36,613 bases of DNA. Source: Candidatus Bathyarchaeota archaeon. GTDB lineage: Archaea; Thermoproteota; Bathyarchaeia; TCS64. Below, one piece after another: positions 371 through 36,438 of the stretch (positions are counted from its first letter, which is position 1; each line of letters opens with the position of its first letter). A program made the translations under genes and the position numbers. The notes under the pieces were generated by a model. It did not search any database and was not told the DNA's origin. It saw only the letters and a list, made by a program, of their open reading frames with translations. The DNA lies in contig DUKA01000095.1 of assembly GCA_013329615.1 (NCBI GenBank), forward strand, positions 1-36,613. Direction: 5' to 3'.

Positions 371-1348
371 CTACTCATAGAAGTCGGGCTTTGAAGCCCA
401 CGCCGGGTAGTCCACCTTCTTCAGCAGGGGTTTGTTCTTCGGCCACATGGGCTTCTGGAGGTAGGTGTAGCACTCGTTGCGGCTCTGCTGGAGGGTGTTG
501 TGGAGCTTCGTCGTCTTGCGGTACTCGCGGAGCTCGTCGATGTCGATGACTGCGCCGATGGTCATCTGGCGTCCCTTCGCGGCTACGGCGATGGGCCTGC
601 CCATAAAGTCGACTATCATGCTGTTGCCGTACTTCGCCTCGTTCGCGTTCACGCCGTAGACCATGTTCTCGATGCTCCTCATCTTGTTCACGACCGTGTA
701 CCAGTCGTATGGGTCGAACATGAGTTCCTGCGGGTAGGGTGGGAAGACTGTGGGCTTCATGATTACCTCGGCGCCGTTGAAGGCGAGCTGCCTCGCCACC
801 TCGGGGAAGAATTGGTCGTAGCAGACCATGCATGCGAGGTTGCCCAGCTCAGTCTTCGCCACGGGAAACAGTGGAGCCTTGTAGTCGTCGAGGACATCGT
901 GTGGGCTAGTCGTCAGCTCGAGGGGTATCCACGGGTTGATCTTTCTGTACTTGAGTATGATCTTGCCCTTGGGGTTCATGAGGAAAGCGGTGTTGAAGTA
1001 GTAGTCGGGGAACTCGGGGTCCCTCTCGTGGAGGCTGGCGGAGACGTATGTGCCCCACTTCTTCGCCATAACCGCGATGGCGTCCGTCTCAGGCCCCGGC
1101 ATCTCGATCGCCGTGGCCACGCGCATCTTCTGGTCCTGCCTCGGGTCCGCCTCGTTGTATTCGTGGCGCAGGATGTTCTCCGGGAAGACCGTCAGCTTCA
1201 CGGGTATCGTCTCCTCCCAAGTTTCGAGGCTCTGGAAGCTGGCGAGCACACGTTCGAGGTTTATCTTCTTGCGCGCATCGATGTCGGGGACCTCCTCCGG
1301 ATTGACACGCATGTACTGAACTATCGCGGCCGAGTAACGGTGGACCAT
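371..1348 (-). CDS. Carbon-nitrogen hydrolase (nitrilase superfamily), aliphatic amidase/formamidase-like
   Basis: 325 aa. NTAFLMNPKGKIILKYRKINPWIPLE resembles the AmiE/AmiF block, and the catalytic Cys context is LACMVCYDQFFPE. ATG start. TATA-like AATAATAG (minus sense) lies about 30 nt upstream. Confidence 0.85.
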   Translation of the reverse strand: MVHRYSAAIVQYMRVNPEEVPDIDARKKINLERVLASFQSLETWEETIPVKLTVFPENILRHEYNEADPRQDQKMRVATAIEMPGPETDAIAVMAKKWGTYVSASLHERDPEFPDYYFNTAFLMNPKGKIILKYRKINPWIPLELTTSPHDVLDDYKAPLFPVAKTELGNLACMVCYDQFFPEVARQLAFNGAEVIMKPTVFPPYPQELMFDPYDWYTVVNKMRSIENMVYGVNANEAKYGNSMIVDFMGRPIAVAAKGRQMTIGAVIDIDELREYRKTTKLHNTLQQSRNECYTYLQKPMWPKNKPLLKKVDYPAWASKPDFYE

Positions 1349-3817: not shown

Positions 3818-4816
3818 CTACTTCTCGAGCCCGCTCATCTTCCTGATCTGCCTGCCGACCTTCTCGATCTCGAGCCCGTCGACCTCCTCCATGAGCGCCT
3901 TGAAGTTCTTGGAGCCGCCCTTGTACTCGGCCATCCAGTCCTTTGCGAACTTGCCGCTCTGGACATCCTTCAGCACCTTCCTCATGTTCTCCTCGACACG
4001 GTCGTCGACGATCACAGGCCCAACGGTGAGGCCGCCCCACTTCGCCGTGTCGCTCACGGCGCGGTACATGCCCCCGATGCCCGACGTATAGATCAAGTCA
4101 ACGATCAGCTTGAGCTCATTACAGACCTCAAAGTACGCCAACTCGGGCGGGTAACCCGCGTCGACCAACACCTTGAAGCCGCGGCGGATGAGCTGATCCG
4201 CGCCTCCGCAGAGGACAGCCTGCTCACCGAATAGGTCCTCCTCAGTCTCGTCCTTAAACGATGTCTCGAGGACACCCGCCTTGCCGCTACCAAGCGCCTT
4301 GGCGATCGCGAGGGCCGTCTGCAGCGCCTTGCCCGACGCGTCCTGCTGGACGCTGACGAGCGCCGGCACACCGAAACCCGCCTCATACTGACGGCGAAGC
4401 TCCGCGCCGGGGCTCTTCGGGGCGACCATGATGACGTCCACATCCTTCGGCGGCTTGATGGCACCGTAGAGGATGTTGAAGCCGTGTGCGAACTGGAGCG
4501 TCTTGCCCTTCTTCATAGCGAGGGCGACCTCCTCCTTCCACACCGTGGGCTGTGCCATGTCGGGGACAAGCATCAGCACGATGTCCCCCTTCTGCGCCGC
4601 CTCGAGGACCGTCGTCACCTTGACGCCGTCAGCCTCGGCCTTCTTCCAGCTCTTGCCACCCGGGCGGAGACCGACGACCACGTCGACCCCGCTGTCCTTC
4701 ATGTTAAGGGCCTGTGCCCTGCCCTGGCTTCCGTAGCCGATCACGGCGACGGTCTTACCCTTCAACGCCTTGTCGTCTATGTCCTTCTCGTGGTATACCT
4801 TCACCAATGCATTCAC
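3818..4816 (-). CDS. ilvC: Ketol-acid reductoisomerase (class I)
   Basis: 332 aa. N-terminal Rossmann motif VAVIGYGSQGRAQALN, and conserved C-terminal knotted-domain blocks (FGEQAVLCGG, ELAYFE). Follows ilvN with a 4-nt overlap. Confidence 0.97.
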   Translation of the reverse strand: MNALVKVYHEKDIDDKALKGKTVAVIGYGSQGRAQALNMKDSGVDVVVGLRPGGKSWKKAEADGVKVTTVLEAAQKGDIVLMLVPDMAQPTVWKEEVALAMKKGKTLQFAHGFNILYGAIKPPKDVDVIMVAPKSPGAELRRQYEAGFGVPALVSVQQDASGKALQTALAIAKALGSGKAGVLETSFKDETEEDLFGEQAVLCGGADQLIRRGFKVLVDAGYPPELAYFEVCNELKLIVDLIYTSGIGGMYRAVSDTAKWGGLTVGPVIVDDRVEENMRKVLKDVQSGKFAKDWMAEYKGGSKNFKALMEEVDGLEIEKVGRQIRKMSGLEK

Positions 4817-5313
4817 TTCTCCAGCTTGAGCCGCCCCTTCTCTATGGCGGTCACACCCGTCCTCGACACCTCCTCCACCCCTATCGGGGTCACGGCGGCG
4901 AGGAACGCGTCTATATCCGCAGACTCACCCGTGACCTCGGCTATAAGGTTGTCCGGCTCGATGTTCAGAATCAGCCCGTGGTAGTCGTTTACCAACTTCA
5001 ATGCCTCCTCCCTCGCCATCGGGTCGGTGGTCGTGAGCTTCACGAGTGCGAGCTCCCTGTTGACTGCACGGAGCGGGTCAAGGCGCTTCACCTCGATCAC
5101 GTCCACCATCTTGTCGAGCTGCTCGACCACCTGATTGACGCCCCGGGCGTCCGCCTGAACGACGATGGTTATCCTTACCGTGTCGTCGTCAAGCACCGTC
5201 CCCGCCGTGATGCTATGGATGTTGAAGTTCTTCCGCCTAAACATGTTGCTGATGTTGAACAGCACACCCGGCCTGTTCTCGACGAGGAACGCGACTACAT
5301 GCATCTCACTCAT
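4813..5313 (-). CDS. ilvN: Acetolactate synthase small (regulatory) subunit, copy 1
   Basis: 166 aa. N-terminal ACT domain (VVAFLVENRPGVLFNISNMFRRKNFNIHSIT) and an ilvN C-terminal domain. Sits directly downstream of ilvB. Confidence 0.93.
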   Translation of the reverse strand: MSEMHVVAFLVENRPGVLFNISNMFRRKNFNIHSITAGTVLDDDTVRITIVVQADARGVNQVVEQLDKMVDVIEVKRLDPLRAVNRELALVKLTTTDPMAREEALKLVNDYHGLILNIEPDNLIAEVTGESADIDAFLAAVTPIGVEEVSRTGVTAIEKGRLKLEK

Positions 5314-5315
5314 TT

Positions 5316-7007
5316 TTATGCCTCCAGCAGCGCGTCCTTGAGCCCCGCACCCGGCGGAACTATGGGGTACACGTTCTCCTCTGGGTCTATTGGTACATCG
5401 ATGACTGTCGAGACGTCGCTCTTTATGGCGCGCCTGACGGCGGCCTGGAAGCCTTCGAGGGTGTCGACCCTGACTCCCTCAGCCCCGTACGCCTCTGCGA
5501 GCTTCACCATGTCAGGGTTGCCCTTGAGCTTAACCGCGGAGTAGCGGTGGTCGAAGAAAAGGCGCTGCCACTGCGCGACCATGCCGAGCATGTGATTGTT
5601 GAGCACGACGACGACCACGGGGAGGTCCTCCTCGATGCTCGTCGCCATGCTGTTCTCGGTCATGCCGAAGCTTCCGTCGCCCGCGATGTCGACGACGGGG
5701 ACGTCGGGCCTCGCCGCCTTGACGCCTATCGCGGCTGGGAAGCCCCAGCCCATCGTGCCTAGGCCGCCGCTCGTGAAGAATGTGCGTGGGTCGTATGCGT
5801 CGTAGTGTAGCGCCGCCCACATCTGGCACTGGCCGACCTCCGTAGTGACTATCGCCTCGCGTGGGAGAGCGTTACGCAGCGTCTTGACGACGTCGGGTGC
5901 CCTGAGGTAGCCCTCCTTGTGCCCGTTGCCGGTGCCATTCATCTGGAGGCGGAACTCGGAGACCCTCTTGCTCCACTGGGAGCCGGCGTCGCCGCTGGCG
6001 CGTAGCTTGCTCACGTTGTAGAGCAGACCGCGCAGGCCGAGGCTGGCGTCTCCGACGACGCGTGTCACGGTCTCCACGTTCTTGTCTATCTCGCTCCTGT
6101 CGATGTCGAGGTGGATGACCTTCGCGTTTGGCGCGAAGCTCTTCACGGAGCCTGTCGTCCTGTCGCTGAGGCGCGCCCCGGCGATTAGGAGCACATCCGC
6201 CTCTGGGACGAGGTTGTTCGCCGCCTGCGTGCCATGCATGCCGCACAGGCCGAGGCTGAGCGGGTGGTCAGCGGGGAACGCGCCCTTGCCCATTAGTGTT
6301 GTTGCGGTTGGTGCCATAAGGTACTCGCATAGGGCGACCAGCTCGCGGCTCGCGCCGGAGTTGATGATGCCGCCGCCGGCGACCACGACGGGTCTCTGCG
6401 CCTTCGCTAGCAGGTTCGCCGCCCACTCCACCTCGCGCGGGTCGGGCTGGTAGTTGGGGTGGTAGCCCCTGAGCTTGACGGTCTCGGGGAAGCTGACGTC
6501 CTCCACATCCGTGGTGACGTCCTTGGGCAGGTCGACGAGGACCGCGCCCCGCCGCCCCGTCGAGGCGATCTGGAAGGCGGTCTTGACCGCTTTCGGTATC
6601 TCACTTGCCTTCCTGACCTGCATGTTGTACTTGGTGACGGAGGCGCTGCACCCGATGATGTCGACCTCCTGGAAGGCGTCTGTGCCGATGGTGGCGCGTG
6701 TGACCTGCCCCGTGAAGGCGACGACGGCACTCGAGTCGCTGTGTGCGGTAGCGATGCCGGTGACGACGTTTGTCGCGCCAGGTCCCGAGGTGGCGAGACA
6801 GACCCCGACTCCGCCCGTCGCGCGGGCGTAGCCGTCAGCCATGTGAGCGGCCCCCTGCTCGTGCCGCGCCAGGATGAACCTGAAGTCTCCGTTTAGTATC
6901 TCGTCGCAGAGCGGGATGACGACCCCGCCGGGGAGCCCGAAAACGTATTTGACACCCTCCAATTCGAGGGACTTCACGAATGCCTTTGTGCCAGCCATCT
7001 CAACCAT
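5316..7007 (-). CDS. ilvB: Acetolactate synthase large (catalytic) subunit, ThDP-dependent, copy 1
   Basis: ThDP-enzyme blocks are SGPGATN, GTDAFQE and GDGSFxM...NN. The track starts at TTG 7043. ATG 7007 (MVEMAGTKAFVKSL) has GGAGG 9 nt upstream and aligns residue-for-residue with the start of copy 2 (MTEMTGAEAYVKAL), so 7007 is preferred. Confidence 0.95.
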   Translation of the reverse strand: MVEMAGTKAFVKSLELEGVKYVFGLPGGVVIPLCDEILNGDFRFILARHEQGAAHMADGYARATGGVGVCLATSGPGATNVVTGIATAHSDSSAVVAFTGQVTRATIGTDAFQEVDIIGCSASVTKYNMQVRKASEIPKAVKTAFQIASTGRRGAVLVDLPKDVTTDVEDVSFPETVKLRGYHPNYQPDPREVEWAANLLAKAQRPVVVAGGGIINSGASRELVALCEYLMAPTATTLMGKGAFPADHPLSLGLCGMHGTQAANNLVPEADVLLIAGARLSDRTTGSVKSFAPNAKVIHLDIDRSEIDKNVETVTRVVGDASLGLRGLLYNVSKLRASGDAGSQWSKRVSEFRLQMNGTGNGHKEGYLRAPDVVKTLRNALPREAIVTTEVGQCQMWAALHYDAYDPRTFFTSGGLGTMGWGFPAAIGVKAARPDVPVVDIAGDGSFGMTENSMATSIEEDLPVVVVVLNNHMLGMVAQWQRLFFDHRYSAVKLKGNPDMVKLAEAYGAEGVRVDTLEGFQAAVRRAIKSDVSTVIDVPIDPEENVYPIVPPGAGLKDALLEA

Positions 7008-7233
7008 AGACATGCGCCTCCAAAGAGTAGAATCGGGTACCAAGCCATGCAGCTTGATCCTTTGCGGAACTCACTACAAACTGTTTAGACTCACTCGGGG
7101 TAGAGCTACCGAATAAAGCGATACCCCATCTACGCCACCCTCCACTCGGCGGCCATGATAAAGCGATACCCCATGACACCAATCTCCAAACGGTATGTAG
7201 GGGGAAGAGCGGCGGCACCGAATAAAAGGTTTG
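7008..7233 (-). promoter_or_regulatory. ilvB-1 promoter box plus long leader with two abutting mini-ORFs and hairpins
   Basis: Minus-sense CAAACCTTTTATTCG lies at 7233..7219. Mini-ORF 7174..7130 encodes MGYRFIMAAEWRVA. Mini-ORF 7129..7106 encodes MGYRFIR. A hairpin pairs GGGGTA with TACCCC (plus coordinates 7122-7127 / 7097-7102). A second hairpin is CAAGC-n6-GCTTG (7041-7056). GGAGG lies at 7021..7017. The architecture is mirrored upstream of ilvB-2. Confidence 0.5.
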
Positions 7234-7317
7234 TGAAAATATTCGGGACACACACATTTGGCTCAGTTACCCTTAACACCACCCACCGACCGATCCTACA
7301 CCGTAGAGTTGAGCCCA

Positions 7318-8538
7318 ATGAGTAAGATGACGCACCTAGAATGCTCGAAGTGTGGCACGCGCCACGACGCGGATCAGCTACAGACGGTCTGCAAGAAGTG
7401 CGGCAAGCCACTCTTCCCACGATACGACCTCGAGGCGGCGAAGGAGACGCTCACGAAGCGGGAACTCGTGGGCAGGGTCGCCTCGATGTGGAGGTACAGG
7501 GAGATACTCCCAGTCAGGAAGGCGGAGAACGTCGTCACCCTAGGCGAGGGCTGGACGCCACTCACCCCGACCCCGAAGCTCGGGGAGACGCTCGGCCTCA
7601 AGAACCTCAGGGTGAAGGACGAGGGTATCATCCCGACTGGCAGCTTCAAGGCGAGGGGCCTCAGCGCAGCCATAAGCAAGGCGAAGGAGCTAGGCGTCAA
7701 GCGCGTCGCCCTGCCCTCCGCCGGAAACGCGGCGGGCGCCATGGCCACCTACGGTGCACGCGCCGGCATGGAAGTCTACGTCTTCATGCCCGAGGACGCC
7801 CCCAACGTCAACGCAGTCGAATCCGACATCGTCGGCGCCAAGGTCGTCCTAGTCAAGGGACTCATAAGCGACGCCGGAAAACTCGTCAAAGACGGCACAC
7901 AAGAGATGGGCTGGTTCAGCGTCGCCACCCTAGGGGAGCCATACAGGGTCGAGGGAAAGAAGACCATGGGGCTCGAGGTCGCGGAGCAGCTCGACTGGAA
8001 GCTGCCCGACGTCATCATCTACCCCACCGGCGGAGGAACCGGCATCATCGGCATGTGGAAGGTCTTCGACGAACTCGAGGAGATGGGGTGGATAGGCAGC
8101 GAGCGCCCACGTATGGTGAGCGTTCAAGCGGAGGGCTGCAGTCCCGTCATCAAGGCGTATAGGGAGGGCAAGGAGGAGAGTGAGTTCTTCACCGGGGCGA
8201 ACACGGTCGCCGCCGGGCTGCGCGTCCCCAAGGCGCTCGGAGACTTCCTCATACTCAAGGCGGTCCGCGAGAGCGGGGGAGAAGCCATCTCCGTCACCGA
8301 CGACGAACTGATGGCGGATGTGCGCCTGATAAGCCGCCTAGAGGGCATATTCGCGTGCCCCGAGGGTGCAGCCACCATCTCCGCCCTACGTAAGATGGTA
8401 GAACAGGGCAAAGTCGACAGGGACGAACGCGTCGTACTCTTCAACACCGGCTCCGGGCTGAAGTACACCGACCTCTTCAAGGTCAAGGCGATCGTAGCCG
8501 ACCCGAAGAAGCCCTTCGACTACAACACCCTCAAGTAG
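7318..8538 (+). CDS. thrC: Threonine synthase (with N-terminal zinc-ribbon)
   Basis: PLP-lysine motif GSFKARG, N-terminal CSKCG...CKKCG zinc ribbon, and PALP-fold blocks. The track starts at TTG 7258. The first ATG (7318, MSKMTHLECSKCG) is preferred. Confidence 0.93.
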   Translation: MSKMTHLECSKCGTRHDADQLQTVCKKCGKPLFPRYDLEAAKETLTKRELVGRVASMWRYREILPVRKAENVVTLGEGWTPLTPTPKLGETLGLKNLRVKDEGIIPTGSFKARGLSAAISKAKELGVKRVALPSAGNAAGAMATYGARAGMEVYVFMPEDAPNVNAVESDIVGAKVVLVKGLISDAGKLVKDGTQEMGWFSVATLGEPYRVEGKKTMGLEVAEQLDWKLPDVIIYPTGGGTGIIGMWKVFDELEEMGWIGSERPRMVSVQAEGCSPVIKAYREGKEESEFFTGANTVAAGLRVPKALGDFLILKAVRESGGEAISVTDDELMADVRLISRLEGIFACPEGAATISALRKMVEQGKVDRDERVVLFNTGSGLKYTDLFKVKAIVADPKKPFDYNTLK

Positions 8539-8581
8539 CAAGGCTTATCCCAGCCGAGCCACACCCCTGACGCGATTCGCC

Positions 8582-9496
8582 ATGGGCTCAGCCACGGCAT
8601 TCGCGCCCGGACACCTAACAGGACTTTTCCAGATATGCGACCAGGCTGCGGACCCCCTGCGGAAGGGGGCGCGCGGCTCCGGCATCAGCCTCGACCTCGG
8701 GGTCTACACCACCGTCATGGCGACGCCCGCCGCGGCGACGAGTTGGTTGATAAAGATCAATGGCAAGCAGACGGACGGCGCCTTCGTCTCCGAGAACGTC
8801 CTCACGAAGTTCTCAAAGCGAATCACCCCCCACGCCATCTCCATTGAGCACCACGTCGAGACGCCATCCATCGCGGGCTTCGGAAGCAGTGGAGCTGGAG
8901 CGCTGAGCCTCGCCCTTGCGTTGAACGAGGCGACGGGTGAGGGACTCACAAATAACGAGGCGGCGCAGATAGCCCACCTCGCCGAGATCGAGTGCAAGAC
9001 GGGCCTCGGCAGCGTCTTCGCCGCCGTGAGGGGTGGCTTCGGCGTGCTCACAAAGCCCGGCGCACCCGGCGTAGGCGACGCCGTATCCTACCCTGACGTA
9101 GACAGCCTGCGCGTCGTCTACCTCTACTTCGGCCCAATCCCCACGAAGGAGGCGCTAAGCAACCCCGCCCTCAGGGCGAAGATAAACGAACTCGGCGGCA
9201 GATACGTCGACGAACTAGCCAAGGAACGCGACGCGGAGAAGTTCATGAGGCTGAGCCGCCAGTTCACCGAGCACGTCGGCCTCGTCACCCCCAAGCTCAG
9301 GAAGGTCTTCCAAACGATGGACGCCGCCGGCTACACCTTCACAATGGCGATGTTCGGCGAGGTCGCCTTCGGGGTCATGAAAAGGGAGAGAGCGGTCGAG
9401 GCCGCGATGCTCTTGGAGGCATCATTCCCCGGGTGTGAAGCCGTCGTCGTCGGCATAGACGGGGTCGGTTCGAGAGTGACCTCTAGAAGCCGCTGA
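8582..9496 (+). CDS. Pantoate kinase (archaeal CoA pathway, GHMP kinase superfamily)
   Basis: 304 aa. N-terminal AFAPGHLTGLF, GHMP motif GFGSSGAGALSLALAL, and AAQIAHLAEIECKTGLGSV. Together these match my recollection of archaeal pantoate kinases such as the Thermococcus enzyme. Confidence 0.8.
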   Translation: MGSATAFAPGHLTGLFQICDQAADPLRKGARGSGISLDLGVYTTVMATPAAATSWLIKINGKQTDGAFVSENVLTKFSKRITPHAISIEHHVETPSIAGFGSSGAGALSLALALNEATGEGLTNNEAAQIAHLAEIECKTGLGSVFAAVRGGFGVLTKPGAPGVGDAVSYPDVDSLRVVYLYFGPIPTKEALSNPALRAKINELGGRYVDELAKERDAEKFMRLSRQFTEHVGLVTPKLRKVFQTMDAAGYTFTMAMFGEVAFGVMKRERAVEAAMLLEASFPGCEAVVVGIDGVGSRVTSRSR

Positions 9497-30608: not shown

Positions 30609-32228
30609 ATGGCCGCCGAGAGGCTGACAAAGAGTCTTAAAGACCTCGGACTCAGAGAAGAGGAGGCAGAAATGTACGTTTTCATCTCGGCAATGGGCCC
30701 AACGCCGGTCCGCGCCGTAGCGAGAAAATTCAATCTGAACAGAATGAGGATCTATAGAAGTCTGAAGGCCCTCGAGGAGAAGAAGCTCGTGCAGAGGGTC
30801 ATGGGCCGACCCGTGAAATTCGTTGCGACCCCAATGAGGAGCGTTATAGATCAGAGGATCGGGGTGCTTAGGCAGAATCTTTCGGGGCTTGAGGAGAACG
30901 CCGAGTCGATTGTGTCGGAGTGGAAACGCCTCTCGAGCGACACACTGGAGTCGTCTGAGGAGCCCCGCTTCAGGATATACCAAGGGAGACAGAACGTCTT
31001 CGACCTGCTCTTCGAGATGGTGGAGAGGAGCGGCAGGGTGATCCGCCTCGTCACAACCACAAATGATCTCTCCCGATTCGCCCTCGCCGGGCTCGACGAC
31101 AAGTTGAAGGCGATGAAACGTAGCGGCGTCGAGGTGAGGATCCTGACACAGATAGATGCCGGGAGCCTCGATGTGGTTGGTCAATACGCCAAGTCATTCG
31201 ATCTACGGCACATCAACCTCAAGACGCCGATAAGATTCGCGATCACCGACGAGAAGGAAGCGCTCAACACAATAACCATGGATGACTCCATGAACATGAC
31301 CACTCAGACAGACATGGGGCTGTGGACCGACGCCTCGAACTACGTCGCAGCTCAGAGAACCTTCTTCGACGCCCTATGGAGTCTCGCCGACGACGCCAAC
31401 TCGGTCATACGGTTCATACAAACGGGGACCCCAAAACCGGAGATGAAGACATTCACGACGCAGGAAGATTACAATTCTACCTTCCACGATATGATCGGTA
31501 GGGCGTTTGGAAGGATAGACCTTCTCGCCAAGAACATAACCACTCTCCCTACAACCTTATCCGAACTCGAAGAAAAAACGAGGAAGGGGGTAGACATTAG
31601 GCTCCTCATACACACCGAACTGGAGAACATCCACGAGATCGATAAAATCGTAAAAAAAAATATCATCAACATCTCCGAGAACGCCGTTATAACGGACCTC
31701 GTTCTCTTGATCGTCGACCAGAAAGAGGCACTCATGAATATACCACACGCCGAGACACAGAAGTGGGCCCTATGGTCGAACATCAACACCTACGTCGAAA
31801 CATCCACCATCGTCTTCAACGACTACTGGAACCTCAGCAAACCAATCAAGGAGAAGCTTGAACAGATCGACCGGCTGAAAAGGATCGATTTCGTAGCGGC
31901 TAAGATCAGGGAGAGATTCGAGGAGAAGGGATGGACCGTAGAGGTTCCCGGGACGCTGACGGGGGTGTCGTGGAAGACGTACATGTTTGACGTGTTGGCG
32001 AAGAACCCGGACAAGACGGGTGTAAATCTCTGCATCGACGTGATCACCGAGGGCCCTGTGTTTAACAAGATAATCGAGAGGAGCACACTATACTCGGATC
32101 TGGTGGGCTCAATGGTCGTCCTCGCCTCACTCGTAAAATGCAGACCCGAGGAGCTTCAGCTCGCCGAGCTATATCAGATAAAAATTGTATACGCCGAAAC
32201 GCCGGAAGAGATAGTCTCGTCTTTTTAA
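30609..32228 (+). CDS. TrmB-family transcriptional regulator, unusually long (539 aa): wHTH, two TrmB_C/PLD-like sensor-type domains, and an unassigned C-terminal domain
   Basis: The N-terminus LKDLGLREEEAEMYVFISAMGPTPVRAVARKFNLNRMRIYRSLKALEEKKLV is a textbook TrmB wHTH. Two similar ~150-aa segments follow (RFRIYQGRQNVFDLL...; STFHDMIGRAFGRIDLL...). No HxK(x)4D catalytic motif was seen. Confidence 0.85.
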   Translation: MAAERLTKSLKDLGLREEEAEMYVFISAMGPTPVRAVARKFNLNRMRIYRSLKALEEKKLVQRVMGRPVKFVATPMRSVIDQRIGVLRQNLSGLEENAESIVSEWKRLSSDTLESSEEPRFRIYQGRQNVFDLLFEMVERSGRVIRLVTTTNDLSRFALAGLDDKLKAMKRSGVEVRILTQIDAGSLDVVGQYAKSFDLRHINLKTPIRFAITDEKEALNTITMDDSMNMTTQTDMGLWTDASNYVAAQRTFFDALWSLADDANSVIRFIQTGTPKPEMKTFTTQEDYNSTFHDMIGRAFGRIDLLAKNITTLPTTLSELEEKTRKGVDIRLLIHTELENIHEIDKIVKKNIINISENAVITDLVLLIVDQKEALMNIPHAETQKWALWSNINTYVETSTIVFNDYWNLSKPIKEKLEQIDRLKRIDFVAAKIRERFEEKGWTVEVPGTLTGVSWKTYMFDVLAKNPDKTGVNLCIDVITEGPVFNKIIERSTLYSDLVGSMVVLASLVKCRPEELQLAELYQIKIVYAETPEEIVSSF

Positions 32229-32303
32229 AAAAAACGCAAAAAAAGAGAAAAAAACGGGGTAACCATTACTTAATATAGGATTTACAACATAACAAATTCC
32301 GCT

Positions 32304-32936
32304 ATGACGCCTAATGGAGACATGAGGGCTTTCATTCAGTCCGTCAAACCGAAAGATCATAGCGTACTTTTTTACGACGACGTCGAAAAAAAGAGAGAAA
32401 TCGTGTTTAACTACCTCTCTGAGGGGCTCTTCAAGAGCCGCGGCATAGTCTACGTTTGTGCGGAGGAGACGCCTGAGGGCGTCAGGAGGGGACTCGCAGC
32501 CGCAGGTGTGGATGTCGAGCCCAACGAGAGGTCGGGCAACATACTGATCAAGACATATGAAGGATGGTATCGCGAGGGCGGCATGGTCGATCCCCTCAAG
32601 ATAATAAACAGATGGAACGATGCGGCGGACAGGTTCAAAGAAAAGGGCCTGGGCACACGCGTGACTGGGGAGACCTCGAAGTTCTTCCAAGACGATAAGG
32701 TGAGGGAGCTGTTGAGGTACGAATACGCCCTGCACAAGGTGATGACCATGCCCATAGAAACCCTCTGCGTCTACAACCTGAACACTATCATCCAGACTGG
32801 TTACACGGAGATGATCATGCCCCTCGTGAGGGCACACGGCAAAGCCATATTCTCCTCGAAGAACGGCTGCGCCATAATCGAGCCCGAGGAGATCGAAGAC
32901 ACTGACGTCGAAAAGCTTCTGGAGATCAAGATTTAG
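32304..32936 (+). CDS. MEDS-domain protein (MEthanogen/methylotroph DcmR Sensory domain)
   Basis: The N-terminal KDHSVLFYDDVEKKREIVFNYLSEGLFKSRGIVYVCAEE matches the MEDS signature as I recall it (H-x-v-lfY..eeel...v.fl.eGl..ge..vyv). 210 aa, typical size. Confidence 0.7.
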   Translation: MTPNGDMRAFIQSVKPKDHSVLFYDDVEKKREIVFNYLSEGLFKSRGIVYVCAEETPEGVRRGLAAAGVDVEPNERSGNILIKTYEGWYREGGMVDPLKIINRWNDAADRFKEKGLGTRVTGETSKFFQDDKVRELLRYEYALHKVMTMPIETLCVYNLNTIIQTGYTEMIMPLVRAHGKAIFSSKNGCAIIEPEEIEDTDVEKLLEIKI

Positions 32937-32961
32937 CGGAATAATAGCCGCCGGCGACCTC

Positions 32962-33159
32962 CAAACCTTTTTATTCGATACGCGGGTTGGAATAGCTCAC
33001 ATCCCGCAAGGGAGGATGGAACATGGGGTATTGCTTTGTCGAGCCCCCGAATGCGGGGGAAAGTTGAATGGGGAATCGTATTCTTAGTTAACAGATTCCC
33101 ATCCGAACCCAAGAACGTTGGATCATTGATCCAAGGAAAGATTCTGGAGGATACCATGC
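32962..33159 (+). promoter_or_regulatory. ilvB-2 promoter box plus long leader with two abutting mini-ORFs and hairpins
   Basis: CAAACCTTTTTATTCG lies at 32962-32977. Mini-ORF 33023-33067 encodes MGYCFVEPPNAGES. Mini-ORF 33068-33091 encodes MGNRILS. Hairpins are CCCCCG/CGGGGG (33044-33059) and GGGAATC/GATTCCC (33071-33100). The palindrome TTGGATCA-T-TGATCCAA lies at 33118-33134. GGAGG lies at 33146-33150, 9 nt before ATG 33160. Confidence 0.5.
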
Positions 33160-34842
33160 ATGACTGAGATGACCGGCGCCGAGGCGTACGTCAAGGCGCT
33201 AGAGAAGGAGGGCGTCAAATACCTCTTCGGGGTAACCGGCGCCGCAATCATACCCATCTGCGACGACCTGCTGAAGTCGAAGATTCGCTACATAGGTGGC
33301 GCCCACGAGCAGGGCTCAACCCACATGGCGGACGGCTACGCGCGCGTCTCCGGGCACCCCGGTGTCGTGCAGGTCACTAGCGGCCCAGGCGCGACGAACA
33401 TAGTCACAGGGCTCGCCACGGCGCAGCTCGATTCCTCGCCAGTTGTCGCCCTCACCGGGCAGGTCCCACTCAGCATGGTCGGCACAGACGCCTTCCAAGA
33501 GGTCGACATCATAGGCATCACCGCCTCCGTCACCAAGCACAACATACAGGTCATGGAGGCGGTGGAGATACCGCACGCCATCAAGTCGGCCTTCTACATC
33601 TCCTCGACCGGAAGGAAGGGCGCCGTCCTCGTGGATATCCCGAAGGACACCCAGACGGACAAGGCGGATATGGTCTTCCCGGATAAGGTCGAGTTCCGCG
33701 GCTACCACCCGAATATCGAGCCCAACTCGCAGGAGATGCACTGGGCAGCGACGCTCCTCGCAAAGGCGCGGAGACCAGTCATCATCGCGGGAGGCGGAGC
33801 AATCGCATCGGGAGCAACGATGGAACTCATCGAACTCGCCGAGATGCTGCAAGCCCCCGTAGCCACCAGCCTCATGGGGAAGGGGGCCATACCCAGCAAC
33901 CACCCACTCAGCCTCGGTCTCTGTGGGATGCATGGCCGCTGCGAGGCGAACTACATCGTCCCCGAGGCGGATGTCCTCCTAGTCGTTGGAGCACGCTTCA
34001 GCGATCGCACGACGGGCTCCCTCCGAGGCTTCGCCCCAAACGCACGCATAATTCACATCGACGTCGACCGCAGCGAGATAGACAAAAACGTCGACAGTAT
34101 CACACGCATAGTCGGAGACGCCAAACTCGCGATACGGGGCATCCGCGAGAAGGTCGCCCAGCAGAGGAACACGGGGCACACAGATGAGGACCTCGTGAAG
34201 AGGATCAAGGAATTCAAGGCACAGTCGGACACCCTCAACACGTCGCCACTCTCCGGCCCAGAAGTCATACGAGCGATAAGACGCGCCATGCCCCCAGACA
34301 GCATAGTCGTAACTGATGTTGGACAACACCAGATGTGGGCTGCGCAGCACTACGATGTCCGCGGACCCGGCGAGTTCTTCACGAGCGGCGGATTGGGCAC
34401 CATGGGCTGGGGGACGCCCGCAGCCATAGGCGCCAAGGCGGCGAGGCCCGACCTCCCCCTGTTGAACATCTCCGGCGACGGCAGCTTCGCCATGACCGAG
34501 AACAACCTAGCCATCGCCGTCGACGAGGGTTTCCCAGTCACCGTCGTGATCCTGAACAACGGCGTCCTCGGAATGGTCGCACAGTGGCAACGCCTCTTCT
34601 ACAACCGCAGATACAGCACGATACAACGCCCGAAGCACCCCGACTTCGTGAAACTAGCAGAGAGCTACGGGGCCACGGGGGTGAAGGCGGAGTCGACGAA
34701 GCAGATAGAGACCGCCATCAAGCGCAGCATCAAGGAGAAGCAGACCACCGTCATCGATGTCCCGATGGACCCTGAGGAAAACGTTTACCCCATGATCCCG
34801 CCGGGCATGGGGCTCAAGGACATCCTCCTAGGAGGCGCCTAA
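33160..34842 (+). CDS. ilvB: Acetolactate synthase large subunit, copy 2 (paralog of 5316..7007)
   Basis: 560 aa with the same ThDP-enzyme blocks. About two-thirds of residues are identical to copy 1 over an N-terminal ~146-aa stretch counted by hand. Confidence 0.95.
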   Translation: MTEMTGAEAYVKALEKEGVKYLFGVTGAAIIPICDDLLKSKIRYIGGAHEQGSTHMADGYARVSGHPGVVQVTSGPGATNIVTGLATAQLDSSPVVALTGQVPLSMVGTDAFQEVDIIGITASVTKHNIQVMEAVEIPHAIKSAFYISSTGRKGAVLVDIPKDTQTDKADMVFPDKVEFRGYHPNIEPNSQEMHWAATLLAKARRPVIIAGGGAIASGATMELIELAEMLQAPVATSLMGKGAIPSNHPLSLGLCGMHGRCEANYIVPEADVLLVVGARFSDRTTGSLRGFAPNARIIHIDVDRSEIDKNVDSITRIVGDAKLAIRGIREKVAQQRNTGHTDEDLVKRIKEFKAQSDTLNTSPLSGPEVIRAIRRAMPPDSIVVTDVGQHQMWAAQHYDVRGPGEFFTSGGLGTMGWGTPAAIGAKAARPDLPLLNISGDGSFAMTENNLAIAVDEGFPVTVVILNNGVLGMVAQWQRLFYNRRYSTIQRPKHPDFVKLAESYGATGVKAESTKQIETAIKRSIKEKQTTVIDVPMDPEENVYPMIPPGMGLKDILLGGA

Positions 34843-34843
34843 G

Positions 34844-35338
34844 ATGCCACTACACACGGTAAGCTTCCTCGTCGAGAACAAACCCGGCGTCCTCTTCAAG
34901 GTCGCCAACCTCTTCAGACGGCGCGGCTACAACATCCAGAGCCTCACAGTCGGCCCTGTCGAGGGAAGCCCCCTAAGCAGGATGACAGTAGTCGTCGACG
35001 CGGAGAGCCGCATCCTCAACCAGATAGTCGAGCAACTCGACAAGATGGTCGACGTGGTCAAGGTGAAGCGCCTAGACCCGCTAAGGACGCTGAGCAGGGA
35101 GCTGCTACTCATCAAGATGAAGACGTCGGACCCGATAGCGCGCATCGAGGCAGTGAACACCGTGAATGCCTACCATGGGCTCATCCTCGACGTAGATCCC
35201 GACATCCTAATCGCGGAGGTCACGGGGCCGACGGATGAGATAGACGAGTTTCTCAAGAGGATCGGCCCAATCGGTATCGAGGAGATGAGCAGGACGGGTG
35301 CCGCCGCCATAGAAAGGGGCAACGTCAAGCTCGCCTAA
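34844..35338 (+). CDS. ilvN: Acetolactate synthase small subunit, copy 2
   Basis: 164 aa. The ACT domain VSFLVENKPGVLFKVANLFRRRGYNIQSLT is colinear with copy 1. Starts 1 nt after the ilvB-2 stop. Confidence 0.93.
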   Translation: MPLHTVSFLVENKPGVLFKVANLFRRRGYNIQSLTVGPVEGSPLSRMTVVVDAESRILNQIVEQLDKMVDVVKVKRLDPLRTLSRELLLIKMKTSDPIARIEAVNTVNAYHGLILDVDPDILIAEVTGPTDEIDEFLKRIGPIGIEEMSRTGAAAIERGNVKLA

Positions 35339-35394: not shown

Positions 35395-36438
35395 ATGTGT
35401 CAACTTGTCGGGTACATCGGCGACAGACCCATAGCGCCGCTCGTCCTAAAGGCGCTGGAGCTGCAGGAGCCATACTTCGCGGCCCACGCCACGGGGATGG
35501 GTGTAATCAACGCGAAGGAAAAAGTACAGGTCGAGAAGGCGACCGGCCCCGTCGCCGCCGTGAAGAAGACGACGAAGATAACGAAGCTCAGGGGAAACAT
35601 CGGCATCGGCCATAGCAGGTACAGCGCCTACGCGCGCGAAGACCCCCGCTACGACGCCGACAACATGTGCCACCCCTTCACGAACGACGCAGGCGACGTC
35701 GCCATGATGCACAACGGCGACATAGCCAACTTCAAGGAGCACTGGGCGCGCCTCAAGCCGAGCCACAAGTTCAAGGGATACAACCCAGCCATCGACTGGA
35801 TAACCGACAGCGAGGTCGCCGTCCACATGATAGACGACGAGGTCAAGAAGGGCGACGGCTTCGACAAGGCACTACGCACTGTCATGCCCAAGCTCACAGG
35901 GCAGGTTCTCCTCTGCCTCATTAGCGAGGCGGAGCCCGAGACCATCTGGCTCGCCAACAGGTGGCAGCCCTGCTGCATAGGGATAGGTAAAGACGAGGTC
36001 ATCTGGACGAGCAGCCTCGCCGGCATGGACCCGATAAAGGACGAGTTGAAGAAGGTATACCAGCCGCCGAAGAACAGTCTCATCAAGCTGACCCGCGGCA
36101 AGGCTGAGGTCAGCGTCCTCGACCCCAACTACAAGGTCCACGACCTCAAGCTGAGCAAGAAGATTCTCAGGGAGGGGATCCTGAGCATCCTCGGCGTCGC
36201 GAATCTCGACTTCTTGCGCCTATGGTACGCACTCGACAAGACCCACTGGGCGAAAGCCTACGGCGTCGATCAGGAGCAGTGGAAGGCGCTCCGCCGCGAT
36301 TACGGCGTCAGCATAGTCAACCCCTTCATCGAGGTCCTCGACGAGCTCATCGAGGCAGGAAAGATCAAGAAGTGGATCGACTACCGCGCCGAGGGCTGCG
36401 ACGCGAAGACGCCCCGCTTCATGTATGGGCTCCCCTAG
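35395..36438 (+). CDS. Class-II (Ntn) glutamine amidotransferase domain protein with an unassigned ~115-aa C-terminal region
   Basis: Nucleophile Cys2 (MCQLVGYIG), GIGHSRYS, HPF and HNGDIANF blocks of the GATase-2 fold. The C-terminal part (from about residue 230) matches nothing I recognise. Confidence 0.8.
   Translation: MCQLVGYIGDRPIAPLVLKALELQEPYFAAHATGMGVINAKEKVQVEKATGPVAAVKKTTKITKLRGNIGIGHSRYSAYAREDPRYDADNMCHPFTNDAGDVAMMHNGDIANFKEHWARLKPSHKFKGYNPAIDWITDSEVAVHMIDDEVKKGDGFDKALRTVMPKLTGQVLLCLISEAEPETIWLANRWQPCCIGIGKDEVIWTSSLAGMDPIKDELKKVYQPPKNSLIKLTRGKAEVSVLDPNYKVHDLKLSKKILREGILSILGVANLDFLRLWYALDKTHWAKAYGVDQEQWKALRRDYGVSIVNPFIEVLDELIEAGKIKKWIDYRAEGCDAKTPRFMYGLP

Follow-up and report, generated by a model that had tools for sequence, protein, structure and literature searches.

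Paired mini-ORFs in a conserved leader of acetolactate synthase genes in Bathyarchaeia: a candidate ribosome-sensing element

Two ilvB leaders with a common anatomy

The stretch of DNA analyzed here, 36,613 nucleotides of metagenome contig DUKA01000095.1 from a Candidatus Bathyarchaeota archaeon (the window, below), carries two acetolactate synthase operons. Their large-subunit genes, ilvB-1 on the minus strand and ilvB-2 on the plus strand, encode proteins that are 60% identical to each other and whose closest homologs are annotated as Bathyarchaeia or Bathyarchaeota. Each gene is preceded by a leader with two very short open reading frames (mini-ORFs), ORF1 of 14 codons and ORF2 of 7 codons, with the stop codon of the first directly abutting the ATG of the second; the coordinates and translations originally predicted for both pairs are correct on both strands (Table 1). 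A 17-nucleotide box opens ORF1 in both leaders, in the same orientation relative to the gene, and this claim also held: the pattern ATGGGGTATYGCTTTRT, with up to two mismatches, occurs in the window only at 7174-7158 (-), 7129-7113 (-) and 33023-33039 (+), and 100 dinucleotide shuffles of the window gave no match. All four ATGs have the predicted Shine-Dalgarno (SD)-like element 7-9 nucleotides upstream: GGAGG and GGGGGA, both at 7 nucleotides, before ORF1 and ORF2 of ilvB-2, and GGAG and GGAGG, both at 9 nucleotides, before ORF1 and ORF2 of ilvB-1. The two leaders align in register from the TFB recognition element (BRE)/TATA box (AAACCTTTT(T)ATTCG) through both ATGs. When a covariance model built from the relatives described below was run over the whole window, it recovered only these two leaders (106.8 and 95 bits), the next candidate scoring 5.9 bits.

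Conservation of starts, stops and spacing in relatives

Relatives were gathered in two ways. Contigs encoding graded IlvB homologs (61-89% identity) were retrieved by protein without use of the motif and gave 13 distinct leaders, namely the two in the window and those of L082, L085, L086, L090, L092, L093, L095, L096, L217, L219 and L220. A metagenome scan with TGGGGTATYRYTTTRTC-N{20,38}-GGGGWATYG gave at least 120 stretches, making, with earlier loci, at least 139 motif matches, of which at least 117 are unique. A full-length IlvB search of genome contigs returned, among the loci listed, only bacterial ones (L001-L080, 42-49% identity), reached through universal peptides of thiamine pyrophosphate enzymes. 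The ORF statistics below come from 80 non-redundant leader units.

The two-ORF unit, with SD, start and in-frame stop as in a leader attenuator ORF, is present in all 13 protein-retrieved leaders, and SD, start and stop are kept in 78 of the 79 non-redundant motif-retrieved leaders, the exception being a frameshifted copy. Start, frame and stops are therefore retained in the comparison of related ilvB upstream regions that the original prediction had suggested as its test. In 97 of 100 unique upstream regions from relatives, a TATA-like box begins 53±3 nucleotides ahead of ATG1, a distance that would place the start of transcription about 25 nucleotides before ATG1 and both ORFs inside the transcript. 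GGAG or GAGG stands 7-9 nucleotides before ATG1 in 87 of the same 100 regions, with a spacer of variable sequence, and GGRGG lies at -13 to -9 from ATG2. Positions that the search pattern left free behave alike among the matches listed: the first base of ATG1 is A in all but two leaders, both with TTG, and box 2 is preceded by AT in every leader except one, which has GTG. The gap between boxes, for which the pattern permitted 20-38 nucleotides, is 29 in 105 of the matches listed, 26 in 33 and 25 in one, so that box-to-box spacing is 45 or 42 nucleotides.

ORF1 has 14 codons in 48 units, 13 in 23 and 12 in 8, the remaining unit being the frameshifted copy (L190). It ends in TGA (34), TAA (34) or TAG (11), always in frame and within three codons of ATG2, from which it is separated by 0 (62), 3 (16) or 6 (1) nucleotides. 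ORF2 has 7 codons in 45 cases, 8 in 28, 6 in three, 9 in one and 12 in two; a single 13-codon entry is the middle unit of a triplication in L210, that is, a repeat of ORF1. The proposed architecture of 14 plus 7 abutting codons thus applies to both window leaders, but in relatives it widens to 12-14 codons for ORF1, 6-12 for ORF2 and a spacer of 0, 3 or 6 nucleotides. Parsimony on a neighbor-joining tree built from flanking columns only requires at least 15 changes in the type and position of the ORF1 stop and at least 21 in the ORF2 stop, with no loss of either, while the +1 frame past ATG2 is open for at least 18 codons in 78 of 78 sequences. ORF1 and ORF2 share a frame because the spacer variants arose by point mutation. 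A single 22-residue peptide made by read-through of the ORF1 stop was considered and rejected, as ORF1 may end in any of the three stop codons, TAA among them, and 3-nucleotide-spacer variants exist. The alternative start at ATG 33016, originally thought to be in frame with 33023, lies 7 nucleotides upstream and hence out of frame; it directly adjoins GGAGG, is clade-specific, with no more than 10 of 69 non-redundant leaders having it, and was rejected as the conserved start.

Individual leaders depart from the common form in several ways. L090 has GTG in place of ATG1, opening a 13-codon ORF1 (MWDCFVQPLFGEN, TAA); L219 starts with TTG and has AGC as codon 4; ORF1 of L217 begins MGYRVL, with AGA for Arg4; and codon 4 of ORF2 in L220 is CAC. 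In L095, box 1 is absent, yet the leader has an SD-preceded, Leu/Phe/Val-rich ORF1 of 13 codons (MSCLLFVSLEDEF), whose TAA abuts ATG2 of MGYRFIL. Three tandem 45-nucleotide units, with ORF1 duplicated, are found in L210 at 528-672 (+), suggesting that the two-ORF arrangement arose by tandem duplication of one unit. In the frameshifted L190 copy (904-1031, +), which is of the dehydratase type described below, a one-nucleotide deletion in the inter-box hairpin (gap 25) runs ORF1 out of frame across ORF2; the copy has either decayed or been misassembled. Two leader-bearing loci lie within a few kilobases of each other on L125 (one of ilvB-1 type, one of ilvB-2 type), L158 and L173, as they do in the window, and the pair of paralogs and their shared leader would therefore be old within the class.

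The gene behind the leader is of ilvB-1 or ilvB-2 type in nearly all of the listed motif matches that have enough sequence. In one clade it is instead a gene for a 321-residue PALP enzyme, whose best matches, below curated cut-offs, are threonine ammonia-lyases/dehydratases, and a position before such a gene fits a role in the control of branched-chain amino-acid synthesis. A loose box regular expression applied to approximately 0.9 Mb of related DNA found the leader before no gene other than ilvB and the threonine-dehydratase-like gene, and the covariance model gave the same result over the window and 37 loci. We conclude that branched-chain amino-acid genes of Bathyarchaeia share a genuine cis-element that is widely conserved, with promoter, SDs, starts, stops, spacing, hairpin, hydrophobic codons and gene association all maintained.

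Nucleotide and codon constraint within the mini-ORFs

Gly2 is encoded by GGG in all but one box and Tyr3 by TAT, never TAC, both against strong codon bias, and the residue at codon 4 may be R, C, Y, S or H. Because GGG and TAT are nearly fixed and residue 4 varies, selection on codons 2-4 acts on the nucleotides and not on the peptide, which probably reflects RNA pairing or ribosome pausing. The MGY(R/C)F(I/V) start noted in the original prediction therefore survives as near-fixed nucleotides at codons 2-3, not as a conserved peptide.

Further along, the constraint takes a different form. At pattern-free positions of ORF2, the third base of codon 4 is always a pyrimidine, codon 5 reads NTT, its TT shared by 78 of 78 sequences, and codon 6 reads MTY; across codons 4-6, second positions are invariant and first and third positions variable, which is coding-like for hydrophobic residues. 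Codon 6 of ORF1 specifies Val, Ile or Leu in every leader, and codon 6 of ORF2 specifies Ile or Leu in all but one, which has Phe there and Ile at codon 5, bearing out the branched-chain codons predicted at positions 5-6. The residues differ with the downstream gene. Codons 5-6 are Phe-Val in ORF1 and mostly Ile-Leu in ORF2 of ilvB-2-type leaders; Phe-Val or Phe-Ile in ORF1 and Phe-Ile in ORF2 of ilvB-1-type leaders; and Phe-Ile in both ORFs of the seven threonine-dehydratase-type leaders (7/7, from a single clade).

The mini-ORFs are largely made of codons that are rare in this genome: in 25 long ORFs of the window, TTT, ATT, TAT, AAT, CGT and CTT each account for 5-11% of their synonymous family. 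The window, at 60% G+C, is very strongly biased against U-ending codons (TTT is 9% of Phe, ATT 5% of Ile, TAT 9% of Tyr and CGT 5% of Arg). Attenuation in the leu leader of Salmonella is known to be sharpened by rare regulatory codons.

RNA structure of the leader

Folding was assessed by RNAalifold on alignments of 69, 15 and 16 leaders, together with pair counting. The most regular element is P2, the hairpin between the boxes: one of at least 4 bp is found in all 67 unique inter-box segments (mean -11.6 kcal/mol, mean z -2.1). Its loops vary freely, C-to-U changes leave G·U pairs, and compensatory changes are few (CCUCC/GGAGG in L086 and L140 and CCCGC/GCGGG in L166, versus CCCUC/GAGGG). In the ilvB-2 leader, the 3' arm of P2 (GGGGGA, 33055-33060) is itself the SD-like element of ORF2. 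P3, between box 2 and a C-run after the ORF2 stop, is more stable than in shuffled sequences (z < -1) in 52 of 78 relatives and is absent in some clades. P1 overlaps the ilvB-2 SD1 (GGAGG, 33011-33015) and has five pairs in the alignment of 15 ilvB-2-type leaders, with one-sided changes only; as the 5' end pairs otherwise in other clades, we regard P1 as a conserved feature only tentatively. P4 is specific to the ilvB-2 clade and has six pairs there, four of them with changes on both sides in at least one sequence. A further helix suggested by RNAalifold joins box 1 to box 2 through the quasi-palindrome GGUAUY, with YUUUG pairing with the ORF1 stop and AUG2.

Neither a multi-helix fold with covariation and excess stability, as in a riboswitch, nor a known family was recognized: Rfam 15, which includes bacterial amino-acid leaders and ilvB-associated motifs, gave no gathering-threshold match in the window and no match at E <= 1 in three leader-bearing loci. 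A T-box-like contact with tRNA was also rejected, since the UGGG of the box mismatches an NCCA end with the usual discriminator base.

A proposed ribosome-sensing mechanism

Taken together, these observations make it reasonably probable, with considerable room for doubt, that the element is a translated 5' leader that senses ribosome position and reports the supply of branched-chain aminoacyl-tRNA, which would make it an archaeal counterpart of bacterial leader-peptide control. Translation of the mini-ORFs is favored by the SDs and starts, by stops that shift and are never lost, by spacing that changes in steps of three nucleotides, by an ORF1 that persists without its box, and by hydrophobic codons that match the downstream gene. 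The originally proposed control of branched-chain synthesis by a translated leader gains support from the conserved frames and stops and from the association with ilvB and dehydratase genes; a simple switch at the ribosome-binding site (RBS) was not found in silico.

In the scheme that we infer, which extends to the transcription start, translation, coupling, stalling and the sign of regulation, transcription would start about 25 nucleotides before ATG1, and a ribosome would bind SD1 and translate ORF1. At codons 5-6 (Phe-Val/Ile), themselves rare and U-ending, it would be slowed by a GGGG run 6-9 nucleotides upstream and by P2 just downstream; when codon 5 occupies the P site of the ribosome, P2 begins approximately 11 nucleotides downstream, and both elements are plausible pause enhancers. 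P2 would mask the SD-like GGRGG of ORF2, and P3, or alternatively the box 1:box 2 helix, would mask ATG2, so that ORF2 would be reached mainly after translation of ORF1, either by termination-reinitiation over the 0-6-nucleotide gap or by unmasking of SD2. A second pair of sensor codons, Phe/Ile/Val-Ile/Leu, would be met at codons 5-6 of ORF2. Stalling at Val, Ile or Leu codons, as opposed to run-off, would then select among pairings of the G-rich boxes with the C-run and determine how long the 5' leader stays covered, and these two variables would set expression of ilvB or ilvA.

Several points weigh against this scheme, beginning with the fact that all of its support comes from comparing sequences. 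The retrieval motif fixed most box positions, so that conservation at those positions cannot be judged from the motif-retrieved set. The starts of the ORFs overlap with an RNA or DNA motif (codon 4 follows Y-R-Y), and in L090 ATG2 is replaced by ACG, though the 7-codon frame and its stop are kept. Each ORF has one or two branched-chain codons and no run of them; the most conserved hydrophobic codon is Phe TTT, with no obvious tie to ilv genes; and rare codons in the mini-ORFs are to be expected of non-coding sequence too. The proposed box 1:box 2 helix would by itself favor U(A/G)A before AUG2, which weakens the argument from the ORF1 stop. Covariation in the helices does not exceed that of shuffled alignments (the score was reached by 290 of 500), covariation terms in RNAalifold are near zero, and folding of the whole leader is unremarkable (z -0.9 and -0.7 for the two window leaders). 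On the output side, RNA from 70 leaders was masked at presumed ribosome positions (a stall in ORF1, in ORF2 or in both, or termination at the ORF2 stop), and predicted accessibility of the ilvB SD and AUG stayed at 0.44-0.46 (p > 0.17); an RBS-sequestration switch was accordingly rejected as a general thermodynamic mechanism. Finally, the stretch from the ORF2 stop to ilvB-2 lacks a T-run, so that no oligo-T terminator is apparent.

The region after ORF2 is built differently in different clades, ilvB-2-type leaders having P4 and many ilvB-1-like leaders a hairpin with AGAACUUUUCGAGA after it; most leaders have a C/A-rich, G-poor stretch after the ORF2 stop. In some ilvB-1-like relatives, not universally, a hairpin is followed by CTTTTC, and leaders of this type (L096, L140, L181, L212, L219 and others) carry, approximately 60-70 nucleotides before ilvB, the conserved arrangement GAAACCA-ACGC…(variable hairpin)…GCGUAGAACUUUUCGAGA(G/A)A. 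Intrinsic termination in archaea relies on oligo-T tracts, and this module, which is not found in the ilvB-2 leader of the window, could be an oligo-U termination or pause signal. As candidate outputs we consider termination by a factor that acts on naked leader RNA, a stalled ribosome that shields the RNA from 5' decay, and a kinetic effect on ilvB initiation. Going further, and with rather less than even confidence, we propose that this may be the first ribosome-mediated amino-acid-sensing leader in Archaea: a device with dual mini-ORFs found across Bathyarchaeia, in which ORF1 would sample Val/Ile and a coupled ORF2 Ile/Leu, GGGG and a hairpin would enhance pausing, and the output would be archaeal (for instance, termination by FttA/aCPSF1 where the C/A-rich stretch follows ORF2, or shielding of the 5' end against exonucleases), with no need of a bacterial-type terminator.

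Alternative explanations

The most serious competitor, which we consider unlikely, is a structured leader RNA, made of the GGGGUAUYG boxes, P2 and the C-run, that binds a ligand, protein or tRNA in the manner of a riboswitch or of TRAP/PyrR, with AUGs and stops as by-products and no sensing by ribosomes. The nucleotide constraint on codons 2-4, with Y-R-Y at codon 4 and no conservation of its amino acid, is what such an RNA would produce, as are a universal P2 and a P3 in most leaders; moreover, the box 1:box 2 helix is compatible in 99.5% of cells and would explain both the pyrimidine-only positions and the U(A/G)A before AUG2. It leaves unaccounted for the SD at 7-9 nucleotides with a variable spacer before ATG1, ORF2 stops that shift over 6-12 codons and are never lost while another frame is open, ORF1 stops one or two codons ahead of the helix position, and spacing that changes in multiples of three only. 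L095 retains the ORF and not box 1, and the leader shows no significant covariation, Rfam match or excess folding stability.

The evidence for translation serves equally well the notion that the mini-ORFs are translated constitutively, as a ribosome loading or standby device or a 5' stabilizer that raises ilvB expression with no amino-acid sensing. That neither a terminator nor an RBS switch was detected, and that the downstream modules differ by clade around a constant core, would suit it too. We nonetheless hold it very improbable, given that the element is confined, in the window and approximately 0.9 Mb of related DNA, to the ilvB paralogs and the threonine-dehydratase-like gene; that Val, Ile or Leu occupies codons 5-6 of both ORFs in every leader, and codon 6 in all but one; that Ile is the sole branched-chain codon in leaders before an Ile-specific enzyme; and that the replacement ORF1 of L095 is rich in Leu, Phe and Val.

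It is very improbable that the boxes are direct-repeat DNA operators at which a transcription factor, of Lrp/AsnC type or the neighboring TrmB-family protein, blocks an initiating or elongating RNA polymerase on the downstream side of the TATA box. The two 17-bp boxes repeat each other almost exactly and in the same direction, stand at a constant distance from the TATA box and are conserved as nucleotides, as operators would be, and TrmB-family and MEDS-domain genes do lie directly upstream of ilvB-2 in the window, L083 and L086; these genes are, however, missing at most other leader-bearing loci. The boxes are non-palindromic, never change orientation and would fall near +25 and +70 of the transcript. 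Their spacing is 45 or 42 bp, a 3-bp step that rotates the sites by approximately 100 degrees yet keeps the reading frame, and the G·U-preserving C-to-T and compensatory changes in P2 take effect in RNA. An operator would leave SDs, starts and stops unexplained, and their retention across relatives likewise counts against the view, raised with the original prediction, that the 17-mer is merely a transcription-factor site.

Least probable of all is that the peptides themselves are active, as nascent arrest peptides sensing a free amino acid (TnaC-like or AAP-like) or as released micro-peptides, for although an M-G-Y-x-(F/I/V)-(V/I/L) amino terminus recurs in both ORFs, residue 4 varies (R, C, Y, S or H), residues 2-3 are restricted to particular codons and not just to particular amino acids, the carboxy-terminal parts vary freely with ORF2 as short as 6 codons, and ORF1 of L095 is unrelated in sequence.

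Comparison with known regulatory leaders

Leader-peptide attenuation is a textbook bacterial mechanism that needs coupled transcription and translation, and we know of no archaeal example. Full-text literature searches likewise found no leader-peptide control in archaea, and a review of archaeal translation initiation has upstream ORFs (uORFs) only in a reference on eukaryotic ATF4, in agreement with the earlier statement that such control is not established for archaeal ilv operons. Among bacterial leaders, those of the tnaC/Rho and ermC type work by holding a ribosome on a short ORF, which blocks entry of a termination factor or a 5' exonuclease, and in them the nascent peptide detects Trp or a macrolide, unlike in the Bathyarchaeia leader. 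In common with them, the output here would come from ribosome occupancy, and a C/A-rich, G-poor stretch follows the ORF2 stop; the archaeal factors FttA/aCPSF1 and 5'-3' exonucleases are, by contrast, candidates only. The Escherichia coli trp attenuator, with its 1:2, 2:3 and 3:4 pairings and two Trp codons, also depends on few regulatory codons, and the box 1:box 2 and box 2:C-run (P3) pairings would similarly exclude each other and be chosen by ribosome position. Unlike in trp, we identified no 3:4 terminator, oligo-T is absent, and the alternative pairings are compatible with the sequences but lack covariation support.

Attenuation of ilvB by uORFs is common in bacteria (PMC10272879). The Bathyarchaeia leader resembles those attenuators in its SD-preceded short ORF with an in-frame stop, branched-chain codons, overlapping hairpins and biosynthesis genes. 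It differs in its archaeal host and BRE/TATA promoter, in having two tandem mini-ORFs that would be coupled in place of one, in having one or two regulatory codons at fixed positions 5-6 in place of a run, in the absence from the window leaders of a hairpin-plus-U-tract terminator, and in showing no sequence or Rfam relationship. Since no terminator was found, we class it as an attenuator-like variant and not as a member of the bacterial families. In archaea, as in bacteria, neighboring ORFs are known to be coupled by termination-reinitiation (Huber et al. 2019, PMC6728339), and the gap of 0-6 nucleotides between the ORF1 stop and ATG2, with an SD-like motif inside ORF1, has the geometry of such pairs. 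Known cases couple full-length genes, often for subunits of one complex, whereas here the putatively coupled ORFs are leader ORFs of 6-14 codons. Cysteine-responsive attenuators in mycobacteria are reported to use very short uORFs in which amino-acid-specific codons tune a downstream operon (bioRxiv 10.1101/834739); in contrast to the Bathyarchaeia leader, they are bacterial, leaderless and poly-Cys, with a single ORF.

Feature coordinates and neighboring genes

Table 1. Features of the two ilvB leaders and operons in the window
Feature	Position	Strand	Sequence or product	Basis or remark
ilvB-2 BRE/TATA-like box	32961..32975	+	CCAAACC TTTTTATT	Sequence; geometry in relatives
ilvB-2 transcription start (predicted)	near 32999-33001	+		Archaeal promoter geometry
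ilvB-2 P1, 5'-proximal hairpin	33000-33004 / 33014-33018	+	CAUCC / GGAUG	RNAfold; RNAalifold
ilvB-2 mini-ORF1	ATG 33023 to TGA 33065-33067	+	14 codons, MGYCFVEPPNAGES	Sequence; SD-preceded 12-14-codon ORF in relatives
ilvB-2 box 1 (17-mer)	33023-33039	+	ATGGGGTATTGCTTTGT	Sequence
ilvB-2 ORF1 candidate sensor codons	33035-33040	+	Phe5-Val6	Sequence
ilvB-2 P2 hairpin, in ORF1	33044..33059	+	CCCCCG / loop AAUG / CGGGGG	RNAfold
ilvB-2 mini-ORF2	ATG 33068 to TAA 33089-33091	+	7 codons, MGNRILS	Abuts ORF1 stop
ilvB-2 box 2	33068-33078	+		Start of ORF2
ilvB-2 P3	33071-33077 / 33094-33100	+	GGGAAUC (box 2) / GAUUCCC	Fold prediction; encloses ORF2
ilvB-2 ORF2 candidate sensor codons	33080-33085	+	Ile5-Leu6	Sequence
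ilvB-2 P4 hairpin	33118..33134	+	UUGGAUC / GAUCCAA	Between mini-ORFs and ilvB-2 RBS
ilvB-2	33160-34842	+	Acetolactate synthase large subunit	SD GGAGG 33146-33150
ilvN of ilvB-2 operon	34844-35338	+		Directly after ilvB-2
GATase_6 gene of ilvB-2 operon	35395-36438	+		After ilvN
ilvB-1 BRE/TATA-like box	7221..7232	-	AAACC TTTTATT	Sequence
ilvB-1 transcription start (predicted)	near 7198-7196	-		
ilvB-1 SD1	7187-7184	-	GGAG	9 nucleotides before ATG1
ilvB-1 mini-ORF1	7174-7130	-	14 codons, MGYRFIMAAEWRVA, TAG	Sequence
ilvB-1 P2 hairpin	7153-7148 / 7139-7134	-	GCCGCC / GGUGGC	Fold prediction
ilvB-1 mini-ORF2	7129-7106	-	MGYRFIR, TAG	Abuts ORF1 stop
ilvB-1 P3	7127-7122 / 7102-7097	-	GGGGUA / UACCCC	Fold prediction
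ilvB-1	ATG 7007 to 5316	-		SD GGAGG 7021-7017
ilvN of ilvB-1 operon	5313-4813	-		ilvB-ilvN-ilvC order
ilvC of ilvB-1 operon	4816-3818	-		Operon spans 3818..7021

We place the start of ilvB-1 at ATG 7007 (MVEMAG), 9 nucleotides downstream of its GGAGG; TTG 7043, from the mechanical ORF list, and ATG 7013 were rejected as starts because relatives and the GGAGG favor 7007. Divergent from ilvB-1 are thrC (threonine synthase) and a GHMP-kinase gene, possibly for homoserine kinase (7258-9496, +), with approximately 25 nucleotides between the ilvB-1 TATA box and the start of thrC. Directly upstream of ilvB-2 (30609-32936) are genes for a 539-residue TrmB-family regulator and a MEDS sensory-domain protein, an arrangement shared by several relatives, not all (L083 and L086-L088 among them); these neighbors could be a protein-level regulator of the ilvB-2 operon. 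The GATase_6 gene encodes a 347-residue class-II glutamine amidotransferase-like protein resembling the GlmS amino-terminal domain, and it directly follows ilvN in ilvB-2-type operons of the window, L082, L090, L092 and L093. A third tiny frame, ATG CAT GAC TGA at 33156-33167, starts 4 nucleotides before the ilvB-2 ATG and overlaps it. Its CATGCATG context is retained in the close ilvB-2 clade, and RNAalifold pairs its CAUG at long range with the CAUG at ATG1, with no covariation support.

Conclusions

A pair of mini-ORFs standing before three kinds of branched-chain amino-acid genes in an abundant uncultured class provides a testable case for ribosome-dependent gene control in Archaea. The covariance model and sequence signature can be used to annotate ilv regulation in Bathyarchaeia genomes, and the leader is an example of overlapping constraints at the ORF and RNA levels that need to be separated. 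It could also reveal how the archaeal termination or decay machinery reads the position of a ribosome.

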